Virus record (IMG/VR): IMGVR_UViG_2537562173_000009
Origin: a virus
Taxonomy: Duplodnaviria > Heunggongvirae > Uroviricota > Caudoviricetes
DNA: 4,664 nucleotides
Reading direction: 5' to 3' (one strand)
In this document: positions 2,023-4,664 of the stretch, piece after piece
Position numbering within the stretch: the first letter of the stretch is position 1
Layout: each line of letters begins with the position of its first letter
Made by a program: the position numbers and the translations under genes
Notes under the pieces: model-generated
What the model was told of the DNA's origin: nothing
Databases searched by the model: none
Seen by the model: only the letters and a program-made list of their open reading frames with translations

Positions 2023-4083
2023 ATGGCAGTACAGATTTCAGGCGTGCTGAAAGACGGTGCAGGAAAACCGATACAGAACTGCACCATTCAGCTCAAAGCA
2101 AAACGTAACAGCACCACGGTTGTGGTGAACACGGTGGCCTCAGAAAATCCGGATGAAGCCGGACGTTACAGCATGGATGTCGAGTATGGCCAGTACAGCG
2201 TTATCCTGCTGGTTGAAGGTTTTCCGCCTTCACATGCCGGGGCCATCACCGTGTATGAGGATTCTAAGCCGGGGACATTGAATGATTTTCTGGGCGCTGC
2301 AACAGAAGATGATGTTCGTCCGGAGGCACTGTATCGTTTTGAAAAGATGGTGGAAGAGGTGGCACGCAACGCTGAAGCCGCCTCTCAGAGCGCAGCGGCA
2401 GCAAAGAAATCAGAAACAGCAGCGGCATCGTCCAGGAATGCGGCGAAAACATCAGAGACGAATGCAGGTAACAGCGCGAAAGCGGCAGCTTCTTCAAAAA
2501 CAGCCGCACAAAACGCAGCAACAGCGGCAGAACGTTCAGAGACAAATGCCCGTGCGTCAGAAGAAGCCTCCGCAGACAGTGAAGAGGCTTCCCGCCGTAA
2601 TGCAGAGTCAGCCGCTGAAAATGCCGGAGTCGCCACCACAAAAGCGCGGGAGGCCGCAGCAGACGCAACAAAGGCCGGGCAGAAAAAGGATGAGGCTCTG
2701 TCGGCAGCGACACGGGCTGAAAAGGCGGCAGACCGCGCAGAAGTCGCAGCGGAAGTGACTGCAGAGCCCTATGCGAATATAGTGCCGCCGCTGCCTGATG
2801 TGTGGATACCGTTTAACGATTCACTGGATATGATTGCGGGTTTTTCTCCGGGCTATAAAAAAATAGCTATTGGTGACGATGTGGTTCAGGTCGCCAGTGA
2901 TAAACAGGTTAATTTCAGTCGCGCATCAACGGCAACATATATCAACAAATCTGGCGAACTGAAAACGGCGGAAATTAATGAGCCGCGATTTGAGTGTGAT
3001 GGCCTGCTTATTGAGGGACAAAGAACGAACTACATGCTCAATTCGGAAAGTCCAGCCAGCTGGGGGAAGTCATCAAACATGGATGTGCCCGAAACCGGGA
3101 CAGATAGTTTTGGTTTTACTTATGGAAAGTTTGTCTGCAACGATTCTCTGGTTGGGCAAACTTCGGCTATTAATATGGCATCAATTGCTGCAACAAAGTC
3201 AGTTGATGTCTCAGGCGATAACAAGTACGTGACAACCTCATGCCGTTTTAAAACAGAACGACAGGTAAGGTTACGTATACGGTTTGATAAGTATGATGGT
3301 AGTGCAACAACTTTTCTTGGCGATGCGTACATTGATACGCAAACGCTTGAAATTAATATGACAGGTGGGGCTGCCGGCAGAATTACGGCACGAGTCAGGA
3401 AGGATAAGACCACAGGCTGGATTTTTGCAGAGGCAACGATTCAGGCAATTGATGGTGAGTTAAAAATAGGCTCTCAGATACAGTATTCTCCTGAGCGGGG
3501 TGGGGCAACAGTATCTGGTGACTATATTTATCTTGCCACCCCACAAGTAGAGAATGGGCCGTGTGTATCATCATTTATTATTTCAGGAGGCAGCGCAACG
3601 ACAAGAGCCAGTGATTTGGTTAGTATCCCCACCAGAAATAATCTTTATAAGTTACCATTTACTTTTTTACTTGAGATTCATAAAAACTGGGATATTGCAC
3701 CAAACGCCGCACCCCGCGTGTGGGATATAGCAGCAGCCAATACCGGGCAATCAGCAATTGCAGCAATCAACAGAGGTAGTGGTAAGTTATATATGAGTCT
3801 GTCAAACCCTTCAGGCTTGTATGTTAATAGCGCAGCGACAGATGTATTTGCAGAGAAAACCACATTTGGATGTATTGCAAAAGCTGATGGTCACTTTCAT
3901 GTGGTGACAAATGGTAAAGCGGTTAATGAAGTTTATTGTGAATATAATGGTGTGACCGCTGATAAAAATATCCGATTTGGAGGGCAGACGAATACTGGAG
4001 AACGACATCTGTTTGGCCATATTCGCAATTTCCGCATATGGCATAAAGAATTAAATGACAGGCAATTAAAAGAGGTCGTATGA
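2023..4083 (+). CDS. stf: Side tail fibre protein (lambda Stf family N-terminus, Ala/Ser-rich shaft, divergent C-terminal receptor-binding domain).
   Basis: It is a long ORF, open from GTG at 2017. The ATG at 2023 is the preferred start: it is preceded by GGAG (2014-2017) with a 5-nt spacer and gives 'MAVQISGVLKDGAGKPIQNCTIQLKAKRNSTTVVVNTVASENPDEAGRYSMDVEYGQYSVILLVEGFPPSHAGAITVYEDSKPGTLNDFL', which is near-identical in pattern to the lambda Stf N-terminus as I recall it. The low-complexity Ala/Ser/Thr/Glu shaft is typical of side tail fibres. The stop is TGA at 4081-4083. Confidence 0.9.
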   Translation: MAVQISGVLKDGAGKPIQNCTIQLKAKRNSTTVVVNTVASENPDEAGRYSMDVEYGQYSVILLVEGFPPSHAGAITVYEDSKPGTLNDFLGAATEDDVRPEALYRFEKMVEEVARNAEAASQSAAAAKKSETAAASSRNAAKTSETNAGNSAKAAASSKTAAQNAATAAERSETNARASEEASADSEEASRRNAESAAENAGVATTKAREAAADATKAGQKKDEALSAATRAEKAADRAEVAAEVTAEPYANIVPPLPDVWIPFNDSLDMIAGFSPGYKKIAIGDDVVQVASDKQVNFSRASTATYINKSGELKTAEINEPRFECDGLLIEGQRTNYMLNSESPASWGKSSNMDVPETGTDSFGFTYGKFVCNDSLVGQTSAINMASIAATKSVDVSGDNKYVTTSCRFKTERQVRLRIRFDKYDGSATTFLGDAYIDTQTLEINMTGGAAGRITARVRKDKTTGWIFAEATIQAIDGELKIGSQIQYSPERGGATVSGDYIYLATPQVENGPCVSSFIISGGSATTRASDLVSIPTRNNLYKLPFTFLLEIHKNWDIAPNAAPRVWDIAAANTGQSAIAAINRGSGKLYMSLSNPSGLYVNSAATDVFAEKTTFGCIAKADGHFHVVTNGKAVNEVYCEYNGVTADKNIRFGGQTNTGERHLFGHIRNFRIWHKELNDRQLKEVV
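2365..2760 (+). repeat. Low-complexity Ala/Ser/Glu/Thr-rich repetitive coding segment (fibre shaft) inside stf.
   Basis: The translation is 'RNAEAASQSAAAAKKSETAAASSRNAAKTSETNAGNSAKAAASSKTAAQNAATAAERSETNARASEEASADSEEASRRNAESAAENAGVATTKAREAAADATKAGQKKDEALSAATRAEKAADRAEVAAEV'. Short motifs recur (SETNA twice, AA(K/E)(T/R)SETNA), and the DNA is rich in gcagc/gcggc repeats. This generates spurious ORFs on both strands. Confidence 0.8.
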
Positions 4084-4358
4084 AAGATTTAACTTTGAAG
4101 TTTCATGACAAACTGCAGTTTAAGGCCTTCCTGTCATCTCTTGACTGGGAGGAGGATGAAGACCTCCAGAATAAACTGTTAGTCGATGAAATTGGTTTCA
4201 CCTACACAGAAACAGGGGTAACAGAAGAGGGAGAACCTGTCTGTGTCCGGAATGACGGTTATTTTGTCAACATTCGCATTCTTGATGACTTGTTTGATGT
4301 TTCTGTATTCTCTGATTATGTCGTGGAGCTGGAAACACCGCTTCGGGAATGGAGCTGA
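4080..4358 (+). CDS. Hypothetical small acidic protein (92 aa), translationally coupled to stf. Possibly a fibre-tip accessory or assembly factor; it is not recognisably Tfa.
   Basis: Its ATG (4080-4082) overlaps the stf stop TGA (4081-4083) as ATGA. An SD-like AAAGAGG lies at 4069-4075. The ORF is very Asp/Glu-rich ('DWEEDEDLQNKLLVDEIGFTYTETGVTEEGEPV...') with no hydrophobic segment. It shares the low GC (~35-42% by hand count) of the stf 3' domain. Confidence 0.65.
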   Translation: MKDLTLKFHDKLQFKAFLSSLDWEEDEDLQNKLLVDEIGFTYTETGVTEEGEPVCVRNDGYFVNIRILDDLFDVSVFSDYVVELETPLREWS

Positions 4359-4370
4359 AAGGAGGAAATA

Positions 4371-4664
4371 ATGGATATAAGCCCCTTACTTCATGCGCTT
4401 TGTGCTGTGGCTGCGCAGATACTGGTTGGTCTTTTTACCGGAAACTGGGCTTACGGAGCGATAGCCGGTTGTACGTTCTTCATTGCGCGTGAACATACCC
4501 AGGCAGAATATCGCTGGATTGAAATGTTCGGGCATGGCAAGCGAATGAATATGCCGTGGTGGGGCGGTTTTGATCCGCGAGCTTGGGATGTGGCAAGCCT
4601 GATGGATTTTGCTGTGCCGGTGGTGGCGTGTCTGCTGGTCTGGCTGTTGGTTAATCGTGGGTGA
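4371..4664 (+). CDS. Hypothetical small membrane protein (97 aa, two predicted transmembrane helices). Candidate moron / accessory gene.
   Basis: There is a strong SD, AAAGGAGG (4358-4365), with a 5-nt spacer to the ATG at 4371. The stop is TGA at 4662-4664. Hydrophobic stretches are 'LLHALCAVAAQILVGLFTGNWAYGAIAGCTFFIA' and 'LMDFAVPVVACLLVWLLV', flanking a Trp-rich loop 'EHTQAEYRWIEMFGHGKRMNMPWWGGFDPRAWD'. GC returns to about 53-60%. Confidence 0.7.
   Translation: MDISPLLHALCAVAAQILVGLFTGNWAYGAIAGCTFFIAREHTQAEYRWIEMFGHGKRMNMPWWGGFDPRAWDVASLMDFAVPVVACLLVWLLVNRG

Follow-up and report, generated by a model that had tools for sequence, protein, structure and literature searches.

The closest described relatives of the locus considered here include three that we name at the outset. 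The first is the side tail fibre (Stf) of phage lambda, that is, gpStf of Ur-lambda, or orf-401/orf-314. In Ur-lambda, a collar built of 12 copies of the Stf N-terminal domain surrounds the tail tip where gpV meets gpM, and it carries four trimeric fibres that contact the cell before the central tail fibre protein, J, does (PMC12617516). Lambda Stf ends in a gp37-like tip, and its gene is followed by one of the Tfa/Caudo_TAP type. The second relative is the corresponding fibre from Escherichia phage 21 (OL657228.1, CPT_21_22; Feiss et al. 2022, PMC9119081). The third is Rcc01080 (GhsB), the head spike fibre of the gene transfer agent RcGTA. This protein sits as a single chain on the capsid pentons, held there by an N-terminal (I/L)-G repeat peptide (PMC7296036), and it mediates reversible adsorption to the capsular polysaccharide of Rhodobacter (PMC7296036, PMC5026251, PMC10218006). 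Our subject is the gene stf, which occupies positions 2023–4083 (+ strand, like every feature given below by its coordinates in this DNA) of a 4,664-nucleotide (nt) stretch from a tailed virus (IMG/VR record IMGVR_UViG_2537562173_000009). We refer to this whole stretch as ‘the window’. It holds the 3' part of J, stf, an open reading frame (ORF) of 92 amino acids (aa), which we call orf92, and a membrane-protein ORF of 97 aa, which we call orf97.

The stf gene encodes the side tail fibre of a lambdoid prophage of the phage 21 type and already has this annotation; the fibre of phage 21, and those of phage ev017 and many E. coli prophages, are essentially the same gene. What we add concerns its construction. 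Very probably, stf is a three-part chimera, made of a lambda-type collar domain, a short Ala-rich shaft and an exchanged distal module of ~430 aa, for which we propose glycan binding. In the sections that follow, we describe the anchor and shaft, the evidence that the distal module has been exchanged, the small genes that accompany it and the kind of receptor to which it might bind, and we end with the base composition of the gene and with its neighbours.

Identity of the gene, anchor and shaft

The window is 99.4–99.5% identical to phage 21 (OL657228.1), to ev017 and to many E. coli prophages, and from nt 881 to nt 4664 it differs from phage 21 at 2 of 3,784 nt. The coding sequence of stf is complete, with its ATG at 2023, a stop codon at 4081–4083 and 686 codons, exactly as an earlier note on this DNA had placed it. 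The gene model coincides with that of CPT_21_22 (99.9% nt identity), which is labelled ‘side tail fiber’ in the phage 21 record. The Prokaryotic Genome Annotation Pipeline (PGAP) uses other labels for the same gene, either ‘prophage tail fiber N-terminal domain-containing’ or ‘phage head spike fiber domain-containing protein’. In E. coli ZJ3920 (3701–5761 of the locus compared), RefSeq (PGAP) gives the fibre gene as two pieces, a pseudogene labelled ‘prophage tail fiber N-terminal domain-containing protein, incomplete’ and a 574-aa ‘phage head spike fiber domain-containing protein’.

Residues 1–131 (2023–2415) form a lambda-type collar, or anchor, domain. They match Pfam family PF08400 with an E-value of 1e-68 (230 bits, against a cut-off of 26.6), and aa 1–94 can be aligned to the collar domain of lambda Stf, whose structure is solved (PDB 9e7m, E 1e-49). 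At the DNA level, identity to lambda is 85%, but only over positions 2006–2372 of the window (codons 1–117), after which it ends. The earlier note had called the N-terminal ~115 aa lambda-Stf-like, and the point at which lambda homology stops agrees with this closely. By homology, the phage 21 anchor would form a collar at the tail tip as it does in lambda. Residues 132–253 (2416–2781) make up a shaft rich in Ala, Glu, Ser and Thr that is presumably a trimeric coiled coil, by analogy with the structure of the Ur-lambda fibre (PMC12617516). Ala makes up 35% of aa 132–250, and we found no tandem repeats in the shaft DNA. The same note had also called the Ala/Ser shaft lambda-Stf-like. This is true of its composition, but its likeness to orf-401 is one of low-complexity sequence only.

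Lambda Stf and the fibre of the window thus have the N-terminal collar domain in common, along with an Ala/Ser-rich shaft, a place after J and, as we argue below, what would be an accessory role in first contact. They differ in several ways. In lambda, lom lies between J and stf, whereas the window has no lom there. The shaft is ~120 aa long here, whereas that of lambda has ~290 aa. Lambda's gp37-like tip has no relationship to the distal part found here, and an unrelated ORF, orf92, stands in the place of the Tfa/Caudo_TAP gene. No similarity to lambda orf-314 or to Tfa was seen, and a Pfam search of the window did not find PF02413 (Caudo_TAP). It is by its N-terminus and its genomic position, and not by its tip or chaperone, that stf qualifies as a lambda-type Stf.

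Evidence for exchange of the distal module

Phage Lambda_ev203 is a sibling of the same genus. Its nt identity to the window is 97–100% from nt 1990 to about nt 2830, then falls to 40–50% from about 2830 to 4110, and is back at 100% for the remainder, beginning at about nt 4120. The segment replaced comprises stf codons ~270–686 and the first ~13 codons of orf92. What takes its place in ev203 is a homologous allele of the same module, with 44% aa identity. A second comparison is to a P2-like prophage (GCA_031791655.1), in which one gap-free block of 1,872 nt corresponds to positions 2782–4653 of the window at 87.8% identity. A P2 gpH-type N-terminus (PF12571) immediately precedes this block, which opens with the motif PPLPDVWIPFNDSL and takes in the tip as well as orf92 and orf97. 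Next comes a 74-aa remnant of the Caudo_TAP chaperone gene, and there are P2 baseplate genes in the flanks. The flanks are 56–61% GC and the block 45–47.5% GC.

Because of the breakpoints against ev203, and because the same cassette occurs in the P2-like prophage, we regard exchange as shown; on this comparative evidence, the tip is joined to the lambda-type anchor and shaft by recombination. In its longer form, the exchanged cassette comprises the distal module of stf, orf92 and orf97 (2782–4653, the P2-like block), and in its shorter form it spans ~2830–4110 (the comparison with ev203). These findings uphold the proposal of the earlier note that the distal part had been exchanged by recombination, and they amend it in two respects. 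The note spoke of fusion to a compositionally foreign domain. The distal part has indeed been swapped in, but the alleles of the two siblings are homologous to each other. In addition, the exchanged unit runs beyond the fibre gene, into or through the ORFs downstream.

The distal module starts at the motif PLPDVWIPFNDSL, at P255. That the sequence changes character at about codon 250, as had been noticed earlier, is right to within a few codons, the shared part beginning at V254/P255. Residues 254–328 (2782–3006) form a conserved junction, or adaptor, that is found in lambdoid, T5-like, Drexlerviridae and P2-like fibres and constitutes the left border of every shared block. Its motifs are PLPDVWIPFNDSLDMI(A/T)GFSP.YKKI and EPRFE.DGLLIEGQRTN, the former of which is conserved throughout except for a diverged form in the rV5-like version. 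We propose that the distal module is a cassette that would recombine at this conserved adaptor (PLPDVWIPFNDSL), and whose downstream edge would lie either inside the first codons of orf92 or after orf97.

The same tip, at 36–69% aa identity, occurs on other N-termini in Drexlerviridae (phage tunus), and in T5-like, rV5-like and P2-type phages. In the T5-like carriers, VSe12 and AKFV33, it fills the position that comes next after the collar protein for the L-shaped tail fibre, and in the rV5-like carrier, APECc02, it is the end of a 1,479-aa fibre. Among the P2-type carriers are fibres with PF03406. The lateral fibres of VSe12, AKFV33, tunus and APECc02 thus share with the window the distal module, its junction motif and the small ORF downstream, but they have different N-terminal attachment parts and different carrier genomes, and orf97 is absent. 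Taken across these groups, the cassette moves among lambdoid, T1-like, T5-like, rV5-like and P2-like phages.

The T5-like phages also have a second fibre gene after the tip fibre and its orf92 homologue, at 5699–6532 of the locus compared in VSe12 and at 5586–7259 of that in AKFV33. This layout recalls the two-protein branched fibres of phage DT57C, in which the tip is of a different type. We considered the experimentally studied DT57C proteins, LtfA and LtfB, as a functional model and set them aside, since their tip differs and they possess a C-terminal autocleaving chaperone domain. The Ltf of Salmonella phage phi37, in which host-range mutations map to residues 468–556 (PMC12541327), could not be linked to the module either; H468/S469 occur in no sequence compared.

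Domains of the distal module

Beyond the adaptor, the module comprises two domains. The first, aa 329–529 (3007–3609), is of the GTA head-spike-fibre type. It matches the NCBIfam model NF048003 (GTA_spike_fiber) with 55.3 bits, against a cut-off of 36. Rcc01080 is the sole PDB sequence that matches the tip, with an E-value of 1.4e-9 for the single sequence and of 1.7e-18 for a six-member profile, over ~235 residues. The beta-rich domain of Rcc01080 is homologous to that of the window, but the setting is not the same: here the NF048003 domain is the middle of a tail fibre, with a lambda tail collar N-terminus before it and an extra, probable LamG domain after it. The domain is common to both proteins, and the role of head spike is not shared. 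The second domain, aa 560–681 (3700–4065), is probably of the LamG, or concanavalin-A-like, kind. Laminin_G_3 (PF13385) matches five of six homologous modules (best E 4.7e-9) and CBM_4_9 matches one of the six; in the window the PF13385 match is sub-threshold.

Each domain contains a hypervariable stretch. Across all comparators, the least conserved parts are ~aa 351–490 in the first domain and ~aa 571–650 in the second, and in the latter identity is 10–28% to every comparator. Conservation of the two need not go together. Against tunus, for example, aa 331–450 are 96% identical as protein, and 90% as DNA, whereas aa 566–650 are only 20% identical. The module is itself a mosaic, whose two domains can be shuffled separately.

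The small partner genes orf92 and orf97

The first of the small ORFs, orf92 (4080–4358), begins in an ATGA overlap with the stop codon of stf and matches phrog_1361 (function unknown). A homologue lies directly 3' of the tip in 10 of the 10 phages for which coordinates were compared, and in the P2-like prophage as well; in the rV5-like phage, the homologue after the tip is 110 aa long (hhalign probability 98%). A profile search of the full library found 77 clusters at 50% identity among 1.8 billion representatives. We looked among these for fusions; nearly every cluster is a standalone protein of ~90 aa, and the handful of longer hits align over several short stretches and look spurious. The AlphaFold2 (AF2) model of orf92 is confident (predicted local distance difference test, pLDDT, 90) and has an alpha/beta fold, for which structural matches are uninformative.

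Directly after the fibre tip, and inherited with it, orf92 has a chaperone-like gene position. It may thus be a generic assembly or folding partner of this type of tip, standing where Tfa stands in lambda and in P2. That orf92 shows neither sequence nor fold similarity to the known fibre chaperones (Tfa/Caudo_TAP, gp38 and gp57A) speaks against this. The other possibility is that orf92 is a tip adhesin retained on the fibre, like gp38 of the T2-type phages, and its constant place directly after the tip, with start and stop overlapping or adjacent, and its confident, compact predicted fold would fit an adhesin too. We consider this unlikely. The orf92 proteins of phage 21 and ev203 are identical from about residue 14 on, although their tips are only 44% identical, and a family of 77 clusters is too conserved for a determinant of specificity. 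Because it is invariant across tips as different as these, orf92 is more likely to assist assembly than to set specificity, and a generic assembly or folding partner is, on the sequences compared, the most likely role for it.

The second ORF, orf97 (4371–4664), is a predicted two-helix membrane protein of 97 aa that matches phrog_1443 and is labelled ‘putative membrane protein, 2 TMDs’ in phage 21. It occurs in ~50 temperate coliphage records and inside the P2-like prophage block, and it is absent after the tip in the virulent T1-like and T5-like phages (tunus, VSe12 and AKFV33); that is, it accompanies the cassette in temperate phages only. Neither orf92 nor orf97 matched any of the PADLOC defence models. 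Two other genes that adjoin receptor-binding genes, cor and llp, are exclusion genes. By analogy, orf97 might protect the lysogen against phages with the same tip.

It is conceivable, then, and we offer this tentatively, that 2782–4653 is a self-contained receptor-binding cassette that crosses morphotypes, consisting of a two-lectin tip, orf92 in place of a Tfa-type chaperone and, in temperate phages, orf97.

The gene order J–stf–orf92–orf97–sitDCBA is that of phage 21 and its relatives. The sitDCBA genes, for an iron/manganese transporter, lie directly after orf97 on the opposite strand in phage 21, ev203, Perceval and E. coli prophages (at 7934–10842 in one of the loci compared). They are virulence-associated cargo adjoining the fibre cassette.

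Receptor binding

The terminal receptor of phage 21 is LamB, and it is bound by J (bioRxiv 10.1101/2024.04.15.589635). For this reason Stf would be an accessory determinant, one of first, reversible contact, as in lambda. Phages 1W, 3W, 4A7 and Lambda_4C10, in which an insertion sequence (IS) element has cut stf to 642 aa, are viable, and this agrees with an accessory role. The earlier view of the tip as the probable host-range determinant of the element was therefore an overstatement. In phage 1W, the same stf allele is split near its 3' end by an insertion sequence with three ORFs (4346–6843 of the locus compared), a state comparable to that of laboratory lambda, whose stf is frameshifted. 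An IS4 element separates J from stf in Lambda_4B5.

We propose that the two lectin-like domains would bind a surface polysaccharide (O-antigen, lipopolysaccharide (LPS) core or capsule) reversibly, and that this would keep the virion at the cell surface until J engages LamB. Specificity would be set by the hypervariable stretches, ~aa 351–490 and ~aa 571–650. A sugar is probably the ligand because Rcc01080 binds capsule, because the second domain seems to be ConA-like and because the lateral fibres of siphoviruses generally bind O-antigen or LPS; in these, including the Stf fibres of Ur-lambda and Gifsy-1, the first receptor is O-antigen or LPS core (PMC8594841, PMC11990801, PMC12312913).

Several observations weigh against this proposal. 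PF13385 scores 23.9–25.1 bits on the stf of the window itself, under the gathering cut-off of 27.6. The AF2 model of the distal 436 aa, built from a 30-sequence alignment, has a mean pLDDT of 55; its one confident part is the core, aa 350–505, a beta sandwich at pLDDT 72–93, and the LamG region is of low confidence. With this model, Foldseek gave weak and unspecific matches, to galectin, to fibre proteins of Pa193/E217, to BoNT Hc and to CBM4 (E ~1e-3, TM 0.2–0.3), and we have not used those in the PDB as evidence. The PDB entries of Rcc01080 resolve residues 2–10 only, and so the shared domain is without an experimental structure (PMC7296036). Lambda Stf itself binds a protein, OmpC (PMC12617516). 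What class of ligand the tip binds, in what oligomeric state the fibre exists and what orf92 and orf97 do are matters that we infer rather than observe.

The OmpC precedent raises the question of whether the distal module binds an outer-membrane protein instead of a polysaccharide, particularly as beta-sandwich domains can bind proteins. We judge this improbable. The module is unrelated to the gp37-like tip of lambda and its homologue, Rcc01080, binds capsule; it has ConA-like and CBM-type signatures; and its alleles, carried on fibres of phages that are thought to read O-antigen, are extremely diverse, much like those of glycan-directed fibres.

A sugar-binding tip might also be an enzyme, a glycanase or depolymerase that cuts O-antigen or capsule, given that PF13385 belongs to the ‘concanavalin A-like lectin/glucanases’ superfamily and that there are weak matches to depolymerases in the PDB (E ~0.1). 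These matches fall in the low-complexity, Ala-rich shaft, however, and no glycoside-hydrolase or lyase family was matched in Pfam, NCBIfam or the PDB. The protein would be a thin fibre with small beta sandwiches rather than a beta-helix tailspike, and we regard enzymatic activity as highly improbable. Reversible binding to a surface glycan is the reading that we retain.

Base composition

The distal DNA is AT-rich, as the earlier note had remarked, and the drop in GC content is genuine and exceeds what chance would give. When all nucleotides are taken, the best single change point is nt 2812, where GC falls from 55.5% to 43.0%; the profile is therefore not the uniform one that the note had named as evidence to the contrary. 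GC at the first codon position (GC1) splits at codon 260 (permutation p = 0), and GC at the third (GC3) drops from 0.482 to 0.365 (chi-square p = 0.003; permutation p ≤0.002 for GC1 and GC3). The values themselves were put too high at first: 55–70% was given for J and the 5' part of stf, whereas the latter is 52–59% GC and the C-terminal part of J is 49%, with 62% reached only in the first 880 nt of J.

The note took this shift as the signature of swapping. Codon positions 1 and 2 hold 66% of the drop, because the Ala-rich shaft gives way to a beta-rich tip, and the difference at four-fold degenerate sites (0.493 versus 0.424) is not significant (Fisher p = 0.24). Composition is therefore, by itself, a weak argument for foreign origin, and does not demonstrate it; the proof of swapping is comparative. 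That there was no exchange at all, and that the GC step reflects a change of protein type, from Ala-rich coiled coil to beta-rich tip, within one vertically inherited gene, would account for the 66% share and the four-fold sites, and for a GC3 change point (codon 359) that does not coincide with the domain border, and it survives as the main cause of the GC step, but as a complete explanation it is barely credible, and is ruled out by the sharp identity breakpoints against ev203 and by the same 1.87-kb block in a P2-like myovirus prophage whose flanks have the higher GC content given above, with the attachment of the distal module to five unrelated N-terminal fibre types standing against it as well.

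The J gene and the J–stf interval

Of the central tail fibre gene, J, the window has the 3' part (1–1964), which is disrupted, with ORFs in three frames. Alignment to phage 21 reveals the two lesions that together cause this, a 22-nt insertion at 147–168 and a 200-nt deletion at 880/881. The insertion, GGCGGTGAACAGCAAAAATGCG, repeats GGCGGTGAACA with an 11-nt filler. The ORF at 882–1964 retains the Pfam domains Phage_Tail_Tip and Ig_GpJ_C. No reference has either lesion, nor do the listed phages and E. coli prophages that are nearly identical to the window, and an exact search of genome and viral contigs gave no match. They mark either a decaying prophage copy or a sequence artefact.

Near ~850–900, J has a composition step of its own, from ~62% GC (1–880) to ~49% (882–1964). 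In phage Perceval, stf and the downstream ORFs are ~97% identical to those of the window, the match spans 76% of the window, and lom lies between J and stf. Comparison of these genomes suggests that the end of J has been swapped independently of the stf tip.

The tail cluster of phage 21 has the order L-K-I-J-stf, and in the window J ends at 1964 and stf starts at 2023. A consensus scan of the gap between them found a terminator-like, GC-rich hairpin followed by a T run (1983–2002), and the phage 21 record has a terminator there. Promoter-like hits in the region were no more numerous than in shuffled sequence.

Significance

That tail fibres are mosaics, and that their tips are exchanged between unrelated phages, has long been established. 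In this respect stf is an ordinary, textbook case, and the gene is present in databases in thousands of copies. In the literature that we searched, we did not find a description of the cassette as a unit (the tip, orf92 and sometimes orf97), of its exact borders or of the functions of the small ORFs. Such novelty as there is, and we think there is some, lies only in these—in the cassette as a unit, its borders and its small partner ORFs, all of which we infer.

The borders of exchange are mapped to within a few codons, on the left at the PLPDVWIPFNDSL adaptor and on the right either at the opening codons of orf92 or where orf97 ends, and mapped borders are what the design of chimeric lambda-type fibres needs. 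The practical value of this is modest, but real. The tip type is a common one: it is found in five groups of phages, and of 5,426 complete E. coli genomes, 533 (about 10%) have a copy that spans at least 80% of the window.

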